Program-made: the position numbers and the translations under genes
The notes under the pieces: model-generated
What the model was told of the DNA's origin: nothing
The model's input: the letters and a program-made list of their open reading frames with translations, nothing else
Databases searched by the model: none
Source of the DNA: a virus
Taxonomy: Duplodnaviria; Heunggongvirae; Uroviricota; Caudoviricetes
DNA: 29,939 nt
Direction: 5' to 3' (one strand)
IMG/VR virus record: IMGVR_UViG_3300012075_000001
Location: 79,804 to 109,742 of that record
Shown: piece after piece, positions 15,501 through 24,500 of the stretch
How the letters are laid out: every line of letters begins with the position of its first letter
Position numbering within the stretch: the stretch's first letter is position 1

Positions 15501-18500
15501 CTCGCACAACTGCCGTTTCTAAATTAAATGACGGCATAACAACCGAAACGTCTCAGCGTAAGTCAGAAGATGCTGCGTTGTTAAGCAACATCGAAACCTA
15601 CAAATCAAGCACAAATGGCACTTTGTCTAGTTTGCAAACGCAAATTACGACAAACGCAGACAAAACTAGCGCCAATGCCACAAAAATCACTTCACTTGAT
15701 TCTCGTTTATCAACTAACGAAGGCAAAACCACTGAAGCGATTAGCGCTGCCGCAACCGCTCAACAAACAGCAAATACAGCCGTTACAAATGCAGCCTCTG
15801 CGGCATCTGCCGTTACAGCTCTTAAAGCGGAATTAAGCAGCGGAAAAGGCATTAACAACATTATCGCCCCTTACTCAGATCCTCAAGAGATTCCGATTTT
15901 GAGTGGTGCTGGCCGAGTGGTGTCGTTAGCCGACTCGTTATTGCGTCGCAATGGTAAAGCGTACAAAGTTTCGCACACTGCCGCTGCTCATTATGTGTAT
16001 TTCGGCACCGCTCAAGCCGCGCAAGCACCTTCTTTAATGGCTGTTCACATTGAGGCTGGTCGCTCTTACATGTTCAGTGCATGGATTAAAGCGCTTTCAA
16101 CGGCAGTTCCGTCATTCCGCTTCAACATCTTGTGGTTCCTACGCAATCCTAGCACTGGCGAGATTACAACTGGCGCAGCACTTATTTTCCCACAAGGTCA
16201 AACCGACTCTTATATCGCTCCAACCGCAAACGGTCAGCGCTATTCGTTTAAAGCAGTCACAGCACCAGCGAACGCAATGGGCGCAACAATTTACGCGGTA
16301 GGCAATCCATCTGGCCCAACAGCAAGTGAATACTTGGTTGACATGTTGATGCTTGAAGAGTCACTTGGCTCAGAAAAGCCTGCTTCAACTTGGGTCGCTG
16401 GTCCAGCCGACTTAAATGCAATCAAAAACGCATTTGATGCAAGCGCTACTGCCGTTAACAACCTCACGACTCGCGTTGCAAATGACGAAGGAATTATTAC
16501 AAGCCAAGGTAATTCAATTACCCAGCTCAACAATAGTGTTACTACGATCAATGGCGCGCTTTCAACAAAAGCAGACTCAACTACTGTAAACGCCTTAACT
16601 AACCGTGTATCTACGGCTGAAGGTCAAATTTCGGCTCAGGGTTCGGCGATTGTTTCGATTAAAAATGATTTGATCGCAACCAATAACGCAGTTGCCACAA
16701 AAGCAGATTCAAGCGCGCTTAATCAATTAGATTCAAAAGTGACAAGCATTGACGGGAAAGTTGACTCAAATGCTGGCGCAATCACTTCTCTTAAATCTGA
16801 ATTAAGCACAGGCAAGGGGTCGAACCTTCTTGTTGCGCCTTATTCAGATCCACAAGTGCTTCCATACGCTGCCACTAAGGCAAACGTGAACCTAGCTCTC
16901 GTTCCATCATTAGAACGTCAAGGCAAGGCTTACACCTTCACCAATACAGCTGCGAATGTTGGCAACTACATTTATTTGGGTCACTACTCAGATCGCACCA
17001 AAGCTCCTATCGCAATGGTTAGTGGCGGCAAATACTTGTTGAGCTTCTACGCTAAAGCTGAAGCTGCTGGCTTTGTTGGCCGCTTCTTCTTGCGAGTGTT
17101 TGATGGGGCAAATGCCGTAATTAGCTCTACGCCTTTAATCCTTTTAGGCACAACTACTCAACCAGTTCGATTCGGTACAGCTTGGACAAAATACACTTTG
17201 TTCACAAACACCCCTGTTCCAGCTGGCGCGGTCGCTGCGTCATTGTTGTTCTACACGGGCGGTATTACAGGTGAGGTTACGCCTGCTGGCGCAATGGTTA
17301 CGATCGACAAGATCATGATCGAAGAACTGGTCGGCACTGAAAAAGAAGGTTCGCCGTGGATTGCTGGTGCAGCTGATCTTAGTTCAATCCAAAGTTCGCT
17401 TGATTCAAACGCCGCTGCTGTAAACACATTGACAACACGTGTGGAGAGCGCAGAGGGGACGATCACCAATCAAAGCAAATCCATCACGTCATTAAGCAAT
17501 GATCTAAAAGCGACTAACAATGCCGTTGCGACCAAGGCTGAAACTGCTGCGCTTAACAGCTTGGACTCAAAAGTAACAAGCATTGATGGTCGTGTCGCTA
17601 CCAACACAACCTCTATCACTTCGTTACAGGGTCGCGTAACCACTGTTGAAGGTGGCTTGTCTACAAAAGCCGACGCTTCAGCATTGGCCAACATCTACAC
17701 GAAGACAGAAGCAGATGCAGCAGCTTCAGGCGCAATCGACAAGTTTAACAGCCAATTAACAATCGGCGGCGTAAACGTAGTTGCTAATTCTGAAGCGCCT
17801 CGCACCTCAACTGCCGCAACGAATAAAGAATATTTGCTTTACGAACGTAGCGCGGAACTAAAAGCGTTCTACGACGAAAACCTTGATAAGCCGGTAACTA
17901 TTTCATTTGAAATGAGCGTTCCTGTTGCTGGATCAGTTCAAGTTTACGCATCTAACTCTTCGGCTCATACGTTTGCGGTACAAGTAAATGCGGTTATTCC
18001 GAATCAGTTTATTAAGTACTCCGTAACTGTAAATCCTAAAACCCACACAGGAAGCACAACCCAGTCAACAATTGAATTTTACGGTACTTACGGCACTGGT
18101 CGAATCCCAACAATTCGTAAACTTCAAATCGAGGCGGGTAACAAAGCGACCGCTTGGAGTCCAAGTCCGCGTGACACTCAGGCTGCGCTTGATGCAAACG
18201 CCTCTGCGATTCAAAACACTCAAACCAAAGTCGAAAACATTGATGGACGAGTAACGGCCGCAACAGACTCGATTACTTCATTGAGTTCTCGAATGGCCAC
18301 AGCCGAAGGGGACATCAAAGGAGCAAACAATGCTTTAAGTGGCTTGTCGACGCGTATGACCACGGCGGAAGGAAAAATCACCAACCAAAGTGACTCGATT
18401 ACATCGCTTCAAAATAACATTTCGTCAATTAATGGAACTTTGGCCACCAAAGCCGACTCAAGTGCAGTTACGAACCTGACCAGTCGAGTTGCCACAGCTG

Positions 18501-21500: not shown

Positions 21501-24500
21501 ATGACTTGTCAAACCTTGTCCTTAATCCTGACTTTGTAGATCCAAAAAGTGGATGGACAGCGGGAGTAATTGTTGACGCATCGACAGCGGCTCCAAACCC
21601 TCCATCTCCAAAGGCGTTAAAGCTTAACAACCGTGATTCATATTATGGGCCACATGTTAAATGCAACGTCGGTGACATGTTCTACGTGTCTGCATGGTTT
21701 GCTACTCCGAACGCTTCAGCAACAGCAACAGCTGTAATTGGCTTTAACACCCGAAATGTTTCGGCGGTAAATGGCTGGTATACAGTTGCAGCAAAGTCTA
21801 CAGATAAAACCACTTGGACGATGGTGGAAGGTTATTTCACGGTTCCTGCGGGGGCTGTGGAAATTCGACCTTGGGTTCAGGTAAGCATTGCAGCGGCAGA
21901 CGCGGCGGCTCAGTTGTGGCACGTGACGAATATCCAAGTTCGCAACATTACGGGCAACAAGAAGCTAGTAAGCGACTTGCAAGCCACTTCTTCTGCGCAA
22001 ACCTTGCTTGACTCCAAAGTTACCAAAATTGATGAACGAGTTACCTCAAACTCAAGCAGCATCACCAACCTCAACAACAGCATCACCAACATTAACGGTA
22101 CGCTTGCGACCAAAGCCAATACTTCCGCCGTTGACTCTCTTGATAGCCGTGTAAAAACAGCTGAAGGAAAAATTGAGACCAACTCAACATCAATCACCAG
22201 TCTATCGGCGACTGTTAGCAGCACAGCCAACGGCATCACAATGTCTGCGGCTATCGACGTCGATCCTGATACTCAATGGATTTATTGGGCGAAGAATGGC
22301 GAAGTTGCACGTGCTGATGATGTTTCTGCGCTTGGGGGCAAGGTGTACCGTTTCGGTAACAGTAGCGGCAACGACCATGTAAACGCTAGATCAGTTGCGA
22401 AGCTTCCATTTGACCAAACTAAGACTTACCGCGTTCGCGCTCGCTATCGCCGTAACAGTGGCACAGGTTCAATTTACTGTGCTGTCTTCGGCATTGCGAA
22501 GGACGGCGTTTCTCACGTAAATGCAAACAACGTGGTGACAACTGACGCAGGCTCTTCGAACTACTTCGTGATTAATCAGAGTCCTACGAATGGCGAATGG
22601 CAAGAAGTAACAGTCTACGTTAAAGGCCGAGCGGCTGGTGCAGCAACGGGAAGTTGGACTTTATCAGCGCCTCGTCAATTGCCTAATGCAACAGCGTTCA
22701 TTAGCGTTCATTTCCTTGCGAACTATCCAAACGCTGCGGGTACAACTGACCTCGATTACCTAGTGATTGAAGATGCAGATGCAATTGCGGCAAACGATGC
22801 AACAGCTAAGGCGCTTTCTCAACTTGATACTCGTGTTGTGGCCACTGAAGGTGCAATTACCTCTCAAGGCTCTAACCTTGTCACTCTCAACAACTCTGTT
22901 ACTAGTCTTATCAAAGATGTTGAAGTAACTGACACGAGATCAACTAACCAACCGCCATCTTGGTATTACACAAACTATCCAAAACGCATTGTCCGTGAAT
23001 TTAAGCAAGCTTCAGTGCTTGGCTTAACTGGCATGGGAACATACGTTTCGCTTGAAACTTATGTTTACTACAGTGACGCAACGGGCGGTCCACTTATCCA
23101 AATCGCACGCGGTACGGATTCAAAACTTACAGCTGAACGCCGCAGCAGCACTACTGCCGCTTGGGCAGCTTGGACTCAAGATGTCAAAAACATCAATGAA
23201 AGCCTTGCAAACAAAGCTGAAGCATCAGCCGTTGATTCGCTTACAAACAGAGTTCAAACAACTGAGAGAGAGCTAACAACTCAATCAACCTCCTTGACCA
23301 ATTTGCAGAACTCGTTAAGCGTAAGTGCAAAAGCCGGCACGAACCTTTTGATCAAGTCAAATGTGGTTGGTACATATAACGGCGTAGCTTATCCGCATCT
23401 TGTGTACGAGATGGGTGAAGAGTGGGAAGTTGGCGCTCAGTACACGCTGTTGTGGTGTGCAGAGCATAAGCGCAATTCAACCGACACCACATCTAACTTA
23501 GCAGTGTATGCGGGTGGCGGATCTCAATCGCTTCAATCAGTAGTTAATACAAACGGCAAGGTTGTCAACAAAATTACCTTTACGAAGAATAGCTCTGGCG
23601 TGGCCAAAGTTATCAACTTCTACATGATTAATCGACCAAGCGCCGCTCAAGCATCGGTAGGTACGGTCTATTGGGCGGTGTTGGTCAAAGGTAATTCAAT
23701 CACTACTGACGCTTGGATTCCGAGTTCATACGACTACTTGCCTGACGCAGTGGCAAACTCATCTGCTCTAACTCAGTTGGACTCAAAAGTTACTAAAGTT
23801 GATGACAAAGTTACAAGCCAAGCAACAAGCATCACCAACCTTCAAACCTCTGTAGGTGGCAACACAATTGCGCTCTCTGATCAAGCGAAGGCAATTGATG
23901 GTGTAAAAGCCATTAAAACGATTACGATTGATAATAATGGGGTTATGTCAGGCTATGGCTTAATCTCTGACCTTGTTAATGGTAAAGTAACTTCCACATT
24001 TGGTATCAATGCAGACAACTTCTACATTGGCCCACCAAGCGGCGGTAAAAAACCATTCTTAGTCACAACAACCAATACAACGGTTAATGGCGTGACTTAC
24101 CCGCCGGGTACATGGATTGACACCACTTACATTGCGTCGGCTTCAATCACAAGCGCACACATCCAAGACGCTGCTATTACCAATGCAAAAATTGCGAATG
24201 CAGCAGTCGATACGGCCAAAATCAAAGATGCAGCTATCACAACGGCAAAAATTGGCGATCTTCAAGTTGATACGATCAAGATCAAAGATAATGCCATCAC
24301 GGTTGCAACAGTCGCTGAAAACAATCAGGCGGACAAAGTCCTAACCCCTTCAAGCACGAGCTTTGATATGTGCCAAGTGACTGTTGTTACTTCTGGCACA
24401 AACTTCGTGAAGATCGACATTGCGCCTTTCTTGTACGCGTGGGGTAGGTTCTCCAACCCAACGATCTTCCTTGATCTTTACCGCGATACAACTTTAGTTA

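Follow-up and report, generated by a model that had tools for sequence, protein, structure and literature searches.

The central tail fibre J, encoded near the end of a tailed-virus genome, is probably a modular fibre in which nodes of sugar-binding type along a coiled-coil shaft give reversible attachment to polysaccharide and a terminal domain then commits the phage; the binding and the role are what we infer from the results below. The stretch analysed here (the window, 29,939 nucleotides) is the final 29.9 kb, positions 79,804 to 109,742, of the 109,742-bp IMG/VR virus record IMGVR_UViG_3300012075_000001, which has direct terminal repeats. The closest database relatives of the element are ~107-kb Acinetobacter baumannii plasmids (78% nucleotide identity) with the same tail, lysis and RepB layout, and these plasmids form the AB group of phage-plasmids (PMC7969092). 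Coordinates are given as window positions, and amino-acid (aa) numbers are residues of the 4102-aa J protein (P0001).

A. baumannii is shielded by very diverse capsules, and most studied lytic phages handle them via capsule-degrading tailspikes. To our knowledge, capsule handling by temperate phages and phage-plasmids is poorly understood. AB-group elements sometimes carry resistance genes. The J family is large, and its sequences are abundant and already annotated as TipJ; the value of this work lies in the mechanism and the comparative map and not in a new gene. The clean cassette boundaries described below offer an unusually legible case of how recombination at conserved linkers shapes the evolution of a multi-domain receptor-binding protein. 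Should the modules bind sugars of the surface, they would constitute a natural modular lectin library with built-in trimerising connectors, of use for typing reagents and for understanding host range.

Hub, shaft and tip of the fibre

By its hub and its gene context, J is assigned to the TipJ family, and by sequence similarity its first ~860 residues are a bona fide J hub. Two Pfam families match above their cut-offs, FNIII-A_GpJ (PF24801) at aa 111-241 (E = 3.2e-25) and Phage-tail_3 (PF13550) at aa 367-524 (E = 1.8e-26). In a phmmer search of PDB, the hub matches the F2-pyocin fibre (25vf, E = 5.4e-150 over aa 22-856), lambda gpJ (8iyk, E = 1.5e-116) and two further J-like proteins. The gene follows the tape measure and homologues of M, L, K and I in a siphovirus tail module, as judged from the order of open reading frames (ORFs) and from Pfam matches or annotation in relatives. 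A fibre-, spike- or depolymerase-like ORF other than J was not found among the ORFs of at least 350 aa in the 109.7-kb element; J, perhaps together with the adjacent DUF4376 protein, is therefore the only evident host-recognition device.

Beyond the hub, a composition scan (aromatic residues, Pro, His, Cys and Met per 21 residues) divides aa 859-3837 into 12 spacers and 11 globular blocks. An earlier note on this DNA had described a beads-on-a-string array of about 11 modules, and the blocks found here lie within ~40 aa of the positions it gave; its array ended at module B2, whereas the fibre runs 336 aa further, through a pre-tip region and a tip. The parts of the fibre are listed below, where omega is the ratio of nonsynonymous to synonymous substitution rates and 'motif' is the spacer motif described after the list.

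12479..24787, + strand: gene for the J-type central tail fibre (P0001); single ORF, 4102 aa, no stops
12479..15052, + strand (aa 1-858): hub, or tip-attachment core; Pfam and phmmer matches
15053..15943, + strand (aa 859-1155): spacer 0, a 297-aa Ala/Thr/Gln-rich helical stretch, by segmentation; 99% aa identity to close relatives, omega 0.03-0.04
15944..16435, + strand (aa 1156-1319): module A1, predicted CBM-type jelly roll; AlphaFold2 model, Foldseek, Pfam matches in its family
16436..16900, + strand (aa 1320-1474): spacer 1, by segmentation; motif at aa 1361 and 1405; cross-matches other spacers
16901..17386, + strand (aa 1475-1636): module A2, paralogue of A1; 41-43% identity to A1 by self-BLAST
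17387..17800, + strand (aa 1637-1774): spacer 2, by segmentation; motif at aa 1683
17801..18193, + strand (aa 1775-1905): module B1; hhalign links to A, D and B2
18194..18658, + strand (aa 1906-2060): spacer 3, with the left breakpoint of the slot-4 cassette; motif at aa 1988-2004
18512..19111, + strand (aa 2012-2211): slot-4 mobile cassette, half-spacer, module C and half-spacer; DNA breakpoints; replaced in relatives
18659..19006, + strand (aa 2061-2176): module C, by segmentation; no recognisable fold
19007..19294, + strand (aa 2177-2272): spacer 4, with the right breakpoint; motif at aa 2242-2258
19295..19834, + strand (aa 2273-2452): module D, probably CBM-type, A family; hhalign link A-D
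19835..20197, + strand (aa 2453-2573): spacer 5, by segmentation; motif at aa 2494
20198..20602, + strand (aa 2574-2708): module E1; 51% identity to E2 by self-BLAST
20603..20869, + strand (aa 2709-2797): spacer 6, by segmentation and self-BLAST
20870..21388, + strand (aa 2798-2970): module F; hhalign links E-F and A-F; C fills this slot in many relatives
21389..21502, + strand (aa 2971-3008): spacer 7; interface residues with 3-4 spacing in the trimer model
21503..21949, + strand (aa 3009-3157): module G, predicted CBM-type jelly roll; AlphaFold2 model, VIA, Foldseek, Pfam
21950..22321, + strand (aa 3158-3281): spacer 8; heptad-spaced in-register contacts in the trimer model; motif at aa 3209
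22322..22759, + strand (aa 3282-3427): module E2, paralogue of E1 by self-BLAST
22760..22924, + strand (aa 3428-3482): spacer 9, by segmentation
22925..23194, + strand (aa 3483-3572): module H, apparently pyocin-knob-like; ESM Atlas features
23195..23359, + strand (aa 3573-3627): spacer 10, by segmentation; motif at aa 3576
23360..23767, + strand (aa 3628-3763): module B2; hhalign link B1-B2
23768..23989, + strand (aa 3764-3837): spacer 11, by segmentation
23990..24331, + strand (aa 3838-3951): conserved pre-tip region with AAITxAKI-type repeats; 98-99% aa identity to close relatives; ends most family members
24332..24784, + strand (aa 3952-4102): tip domain T, the most variable part of J

The spacers between the modules are poor in aromatic residues and proline, and all of them cross-match one another in self-BLAST. 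Their motif, [LV]xxKA[DEN]xxA[VL]xxLxx[KR]V, had been reported in the earlier note to recur in nine copies; the recurrence stands and the count does not, as we find seven strict copies and one relaxed copy, against 0 in 2000 shuffles. Hydrophobic periodicity gives modest peaks at 3.5-3.67 residues, which are weak alone. Spacer 0 is a low-complexity helix with few large hydrophobic residues, unlike the later motif-bearing spacers, yet it is conserved at the 99% level given above. The pattern SxSxxMxxLxS has been reported in the F7 pyocin fibre, where a coiled coil switches fold to a beta-prism (PMC12874032). In J, its frequency is 2.5 to 4 times that of shuffles in the spacers at 16436-16900, 19835-20197 and 21950-22321 and is not raised in the others; it occurs seven times in aa 1320-1474 against 2.5 expected and is absent from aa 3895-3951. 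J differs from F7 pyocin in that the pattern is only patchily enriched, and it was not used as evidence.

Lambda J and the pyocin fibres are trimers. A model of three copies of aa 2965-3285 (spacer, G, spacer) scored 0.71, and the best of three controls scored 0.00; among proteins with solved structures, 20 of 30 that are pairs of one chain reach the 0.71 mark, as does 1 of 23 that are single chains. At least 44% of the contacts recur between runs, and the partner has a predicted local distance difference test (pLDDT) value of at least 73. On both flanks of G, the confident contacts follow a 3-4 rhythm and lie in register, residue n with residue n, which is what a parallel three-stranded coiled coil gives; a trimer is supported by this model, though not proven. 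The three G domains are placed around the junction, and module-to-module contacts are present. At 0.148 nm per residue, the 1397 residues of the spacers would extend to ~207 nm, a length from arithmetic and not from measurement, while the modules total 1582 residues per chain. By similar arithmetic, the 1915-aa tape measure at ~0.15 nm per residue would correspond to a ~290-nm tail, similar in length to the extended central fibre.

The pre-tip repeats match the tail tip fibre of SU10 weakly (7z4b, E = 9e-4). Tip T shares 75% aa identity with relatives that are 95-99% identical elsewhere, and its omega of 0.13-0.14 is the highest in the gene; other lineages carry an alternative C-terminus (tip2). 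A comparison of aa 3767-4102 with the J proteins in PDB gave no match and no detectable similarity to the lambda LamB-binding domain. Tip T is likely to be the terminal receptor-binding domain.

Folds and relationships of the modules

Nine of the eleven modules appear to form one loose superfamily of beta-jelly rolls of the carbohydrate-binding module (CBM) 4/9/16/22 type, in part through homology. In the predicted structures, A1 and G are jelly rolls of this type, superposable on solved modules. Single modules were folded since MAFFT mixed different families in multi-module alignments of 690-970 aa. With family alignments, AlphaFold2 gave a pLDDT of 91.6 for A1 and 85.1 for G (core >90), each a beta-sandwich followed by a helix. 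CBM22, CBM16, CBM4-2 and CBM11 lead the Foldseek matches of both models in PDB (E = 4e-7 to 7e-7), and CBM-type domains of phage CBA120 TSP4, the Klebsiella K2-2 tailspike, the Pa193 fibre and the central fibre of mycobacteriophage Douge are also returned. VIA, an independent exhaustive aligner, superposes G on CBM22 of Xyn10B (2w5f) with Z = 14.8 and a root-mean-square deviation of 2.6 Å over 135 residues; Z is 13.2 for CBM4-2 and 10-13 for the phi812 baseplate, CBA120 TSP4, Kp7 gp52 and Pa193. Toxins and reelin repeats likewise appear in the Foldseek and VIA lists. A1 is similar to hundreds of phage proteins in BFVD (tail, minor-tail and J), several with a CenC-like annotation, and a shape search of the ESM Atlas returned clusters carrying CBM_4_9 or CBM9.

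The remaining assignments come from profiles. Alignments of the module families were built from 270 homologues and compared profile to profile with hhalign, which links A with D (probability 100%, E = 7e-40), A with B1 (94.6%), B1 with D (94.2%), E with F (96.4%), A with F (74%) and A with E (58%); G reaches 36-44% with D, E or F. The family relationships put forward in the earlier note agree with these results: A1 and A2 are paralogues (41-43% by self-BLAST) whose ending D shares (37% between the ends of D and A1), E1 and E2 are paralogues at 51% identity, and B1 and B2, which were said to end alike in W-x-P-S-x-x-D, do so as WSPSPRD and WIPSSYD and are remote homologues by hhalign (87.6%). 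A Pfam scan of all family members found CBM_4_9 (PF02018) as the only recurrent family, with matches in 13 of 31 members of the G family (best E = 1e-10), 26 of 70 of the A/D family (best E = 2.8e-10) and 13 of 80 of the E family (best E = 1.9e-7). From these matches in relatives and the profile links, D, E1/E2, F, B1 and B2 would share the CBM4/9-type fold.

The CBM4/9-type folds expected beforehand are thus recovered by AlphaFold2 and Foldseek for G and A1 but do not extend to H or C. Neither of these two showed a relationship to any other module in hhalign, and Pfam scans of their family members gave nothing consistent. Module H looks pyocin-knob-like from language-model features: its ESM Atlas score is 0.94, and it shares 181-183 of 256 features with clusters of 'pyocin knob domain-containing protein'. 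The signature D-T-R...P..Y...EFK...SGG...Q...R...W..W is strongly conserved in its family. H has no sequence match in Pfam, NCBIfam or PDB, and a profile search of PDB sequences stayed at chance level. The same holds for C in Pfam and PDB, where the profile search was again at chance level only; in the ESM Atlas, the clusters nearest to it consist of viral proteins that stand alone, are 142-161 aa long and belong to no Pfam family, and C may also exist as an independent small phage protein.

One further match bears on what such domains are for. A1 weakly matches the NCBIfam GTA/phage head-spike fibre domain (E = 9.1e-6, 26.3 bits, under the 36-bit cut-off), which shows a use of the fold at sites other than the tail tip. 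The modules could then bind biofilm matrix, mucus or abiotic polysaccharide and retain virions near hosts, as proposed for capsid immunoglobulin-like domains, with no role in host range; the lectin-type fold and the low divergence of modules between relatives from different strains would suit this as well. We regard such environmental adhesion as quite improbable, since the central fibre carries the modules between its hub and its receptor-binding tip, on the part that meets the cell first, no other fibre or depolymerase candidate is among the element's ORFs of at least 350 aa, and module content varies between lineages like host-range determinants.

Exchange of cassettes at the spacers

Sequence comparison supports the view that relatives of J differ by insertion, deletion, duplication, relocation and replacement of whole modules, with breakpoints in the spacers. 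A protein homologue search gave 1993 matches; the non-partial ones listed are 3680-4559 aa long and come from A. baumannii, A. pittii, A. oleivorans, A. calcoaceticus and A. lactucae, on plasmid-sized as well as megabase-sized contigs. The earlier note had named an invariant module order as the observation that would speak against exchange; clustering of the globular blocks instead gave ~17 module architectures among 120 listed homologues. In the strings below, I, B2 and 12 are further module families.

This element: A-A-B-C-D-E-F-G-E-H-B2-tip1
P0002: A-A-B-F'-D-E-F-G-E-H-B2-tip1
P0003: A-A-B-I-D-E-F-G-E-H-B2-tip1
47 cluster representatives: A-A-B-I-D-E-C-G-B2-E-H-tip2
29 cluster representatives: A-B-I-D-E-C-G-B2-12-H-tip1
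4 cluster representatives: A-E-A-B-I-D-E-F-G-C-E-H-tip2

A backbone order A-B-x-D-E-x-G-...-H-tip is conserved, and shuffling is therefore constrained. Within this frame, relatives have C modules in two other slots that are 82-95% identical to the one in this element, and the B2 family occurs in three positions, among them directly after B1 (P0008, P0021, L014) and after G (P0030).

The fourth slot shows the exchange most directly. In the closest relatives, P0002 and P0003, its cassette is replaced by other modules. We compared the DNA of J with L004 and L005, the two closest relatives for which DNA was retrieved. Homology of 94-95% at the nucleotide level ends at aa 2011 (L004) or aa 1970 (L005) and resumes at aa 2212 or aa 2202, respectively; both breakpoints fall inside spacers 3 and 4 and adjoin the motif copies at aa 1988-2004 and aa 2242-2258. 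In P0018, P0021 and P0013, the C cassette stands after G, with at least 90% aa identity over ~aa 2011 to ~2190. There the identity starts at the same left boundary, ~aa 2011, and is uneven (65-90%) from ~aa 2190 to ~2230, so that the right edge at aa 2211 is fixed by the DNA breakpoints only. The C cassette also has an 80% nucleotide match to aa 2935-3179 of L014, out of order; in this chromosomal prophage J, C and B2 are exactly the modules whose DNA matches depart from the order. The replacement in slot 4 and the relocation of C and B2 bear out the proposal that whole modules change at the spacers.

Substitution rates point to a second kind of exchange. Omega and the synonymous divergence dS were computed in sliding windows and by the Nei-Gojobori method against two relatives. 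From ~0.15, the dS jumps to 1.2-1.7 for B1 and D in the comparison with L004, for E1 and F in that with L005, and for the tip in both; against L004, B1 has a dS of 1.18, compared with ~0.18 in its neighbours, and D one of 1.43. Judged from these alignments, the jumps are whole-module allele replacements on a conserved spacer frame, with B1 and D as imported alleles relative to L004. Point-mutational hypervariation has no visible part in the diversification of J.

Slippage or intragenic recombination between spacers was considered and is unlikely, since the spacer repeats within the J gene are only 60-78% identical in DNA, with short seeds; this low identity therefore points to exchange between co-infecting or resident relatives at corresponding spacers. 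A reverse transcriptase (RVT_1) or Resolvase match was not found across the whole 109.7-kb element, in agreement with the suggestion that J diversifies without an invertase or a diversity-generating retroelement. Elsewhere on the element, outside the window, a 650-aa RecF/RecN/SMC-type ATPase is encoded (29709-31661 of the record), and recA and recF homologues are reported for AB-group elements (PMC7969092). An element-borne recombination system could favour cassette exchange in J.

Two hub types that are ~36% identical (12479-15052 versus P0005-P0029) are joined to module arrays that are 80-95% identical, from which it follows that arrays move between lineages. Two unrelated C-terminal ends, tip1 and tip2, combine freely with either hub type; J therefore behaves as an assembly of three units, hub, array and tip, each of which can be exchanged separately.

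The families also extend well beyond close relatives. When 1.84 billion cluster representatives were searched with E1-F-G, 715 proteins of up to 7239 aa reached E <=1e-3, and 108 of these reached <=1e-30; annotation of the best 150 of the 715 with hidden Markov models gave the same families in ever-different orders and copy numbers. Among the metagenomic relatives, lengths reach 7239-7850 aa (P0132, 7239 aa with ~19 recognisable modules; P0271, 7850 aa), P0169 has 4797 aa, and some carry runs of a single family, such as G-G-G-G or D repeated eight times. By tblastn, 45 Acinetobacter phages contain the modules; they cover all three tail morphologies and include AM106, and weaker matches occur in Klebsiella phages. 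A megablast of the J gene against the phage collection gave no match, these relatives were found by tblastn only, and a scan of genome contigs with single modules gave no confirmed relative. PHROGs 5911, 2589, 11678, 5499 and 11 contain J modules.

Omega is 0.02-0.14 in every segment of J, and all parts of the protein are under strong purifying selection. This bears on another account, in which the modules are mainly structural, setting register or stiffness or serving as hinges or trimerisation nuclei, while the tip alone recognises the host and the CBM-like fold is a ligand-free scaffold. Strong selection on every module is in keeping with it, as are the conserved backbone order, the module-to-module contacts in the trimer model and the scores of the element's own copies under the Pfam cut-off; the tip, moreover, is the only part with the raised omega and allelic divergence typical of receptor binders. 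Nevertheless, we think this account unlikely, since it leaves unexplained why eight distinct module families persist and are moved and traded as cassettes among phage lineages and morphotypes that are unrelated, and why the closest solved phage relatives of the fold lie in receptor-binding proteins.

Proposed mechanism, known systems and neighbouring genes

Under the favoured reading, that of a modular fibre for reversible polysaccharide attachment, three chains would form the tail-tip hub with their first ~860 residues and extend as a parallel three-stranded coiled coil of ~1400 residues, ~200 nm long if fully extended. This coil would be interrupted eleven times, each chain looping out a small globular domain to give eleven rings of three domains, before the fibre ends in the conserved pre-tip region and the variable tip domain. 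The jelly-roll domains would probably attach to surface polysaccharide, be it capsule, lipooligosaccharide or matrix, through numerous weak and reversible contacts; such contacts would hold the phage on an encapsulated cell while the fibre reaches through the capsule, and the tip domain would make the committing contact afterwards. Recombination in the spacers, probably at their conserved motifs, replaces, moves, duplicates or deletes cassettes of half-spacer, module and half-spacer, and J has these cassettes in common with other phages of Acinetobacter, among them integrated prophages whose hub is very different.

Several points weigh against this reading. The AlphaFold2 models cover A1 and G, two of the eleven modules. 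The window's own G scores 17.4 bits with CBM_4_9 (E = 0.006), under the 25.9-bit gathering cut-off, its A1 and E1 have no CBM_4_9 match in Pfam, and C and H are not CBM-like; the same jelly-roll fold, furthermore, also serves protein binding or purely structural roles. The trimer job, with three copies and a custom alignment, lies outside the calibration of the tool. Omega gives no sign of positive selection in the modules, unlike many receptor-binding tips. Lastly, a virion has yet to be described for the AB group (PMC7969092), and because of this the display of the full-length fibre is inferred. The nearest support for display comes from AM106, a phage obtained from river water on A. baumannii; its record has a 3489-aa protein annotated as 'main tail protein, central fiber'.

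The same lack of a known AB-group particle (PMC7969092), together with a literature that yielded no experimental data on the protein, leaves room for an array that is never displayed, either because the shaft is processed and discarded or because the AB-group element is a defective phage with a relic gene. We give this very little credence. The 12.3-kb ORF has no stop and keeps an omega of 0.02-0.14 over its full length against two relatives, hundreds of homologues are intact, a Pfam scan of J found no peptidase or intramolecular-chaperone domain, and AM106 from river water has the homologous central fibre gene.

A bolder form of the favoured reading can be put forward tentatively, although we consider it rather unlikely. 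The fibre may act as a lectin 'fishing line', used by temperate Acinetobacter phages and phage-plasmids in place of capsule depolymerases. A given cassette would be specific for one sugar of the capsule, the lipooligosaccharide or the matrix, and the cassettes in their order would be a readable code of the surface range; exchange at spacer motifs across lineages and morphotypes would then be the main route by which that range changes.

Several elements of this picture are known separately, namely CBMs on siphophage tail tips, mobile pseudo-domains and motif recombination that swaps adhesin segments; a paper on the modular architecture of these Acinetobacter J proteins was not found in the literature. 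J shares with lambda gpJ and the F-type pyocin fibres (TipJ; PDB 8iyk, 25vf, 9l9p) a homologous N-terminal hub of ~850 residues and the gene order TMP-M-L-K-I-J, with TMP the tape measure, as well as the trimeric fibre, coiled-coil shaft and C-terminal binding end that are predicted here. Nevertheless, there are clear differences. Those proteins have 1132-1204 aa (lambda J, given as about 1130 aa in the earlier note, has 1132 in 8iyk), whereas J has ~2900 residues more, as a segmented coiled coil with eleven modules, and by this expansion its shaft departs from every solved TipJ member. Its tip, moreover, is without the detectable similarity to the LamB-binding domain already discussed.

In siphophages of Gram-positive bacteria, CBMs decorate 'evolved' Dit proteins and Tal extensions (PMC7291167). 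These, like the Douge central fibre gp20 (PDB 8zdp), which is among the Foldseek matches of G at E = 1e-5, have CBM folds grafted onto non-contractile tail-tip proteins. There, one to few modules sit on short extensions; J combines eleven modules of eight families with a coiled coil of ~200 nm, a Gram-negative host and a repeated spacer motif at the cassette boundaries. Recombination at conserved motifs also swaps segments of phage adhesins (Tetart et al. 1998, cited in PMC10879196). Short conserved motifs there likewise flank variable binding segments and serve as recombination sites between phages; the protein family and the fold are different, and in J whole folded domains with half-spacers are exchanged, and the cassettes also change position and copy number in the fibre.

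The giant fibres of other Acinetobacter phages (AM106, 3489 aa; phiAbaA1-like myoviruses; the Presley/XC38 podoviruses; ME3) have the same module families and spacer type, at 32-55% aa identity by tblastn, and differ in the hub or attachment domain and in the order and number of modules. A published structural or binding study of them was not found in the literature. The pyocin knob is a 'mobile pseudo-domain' in a tail fibre atlas (bioRxiv 10.1101/2024.10.28.620165). Module H resembles the knob domain of R-type pyocins and phage fibres by the language-model features described above and recurs in many fibres, but it differs in having no sequence-profile match (Pfam, NCBIfam, PDB).

The genes around J run in the order 1915-aa tape measure, M, L, K, I, J, DUF4376, holin, endolysin and plasmid Rep, as in the related plasmids. 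Two of them are listed here.

24787..25344, + strand: DUF4376 gene, 185 aa; Pfam DUF4376, E = 8.3e-20; begins at the J stop codon; position kept in relatives
4320-10067: tape measure gene, 1915 aa

The DUF4376 protein may be a fibre-assembly factor or a distal accessory adhesin. The G+C content of the window peaks within the tape measure gene, at 9001-10000, where it is 0.53 compared with ~0.46.

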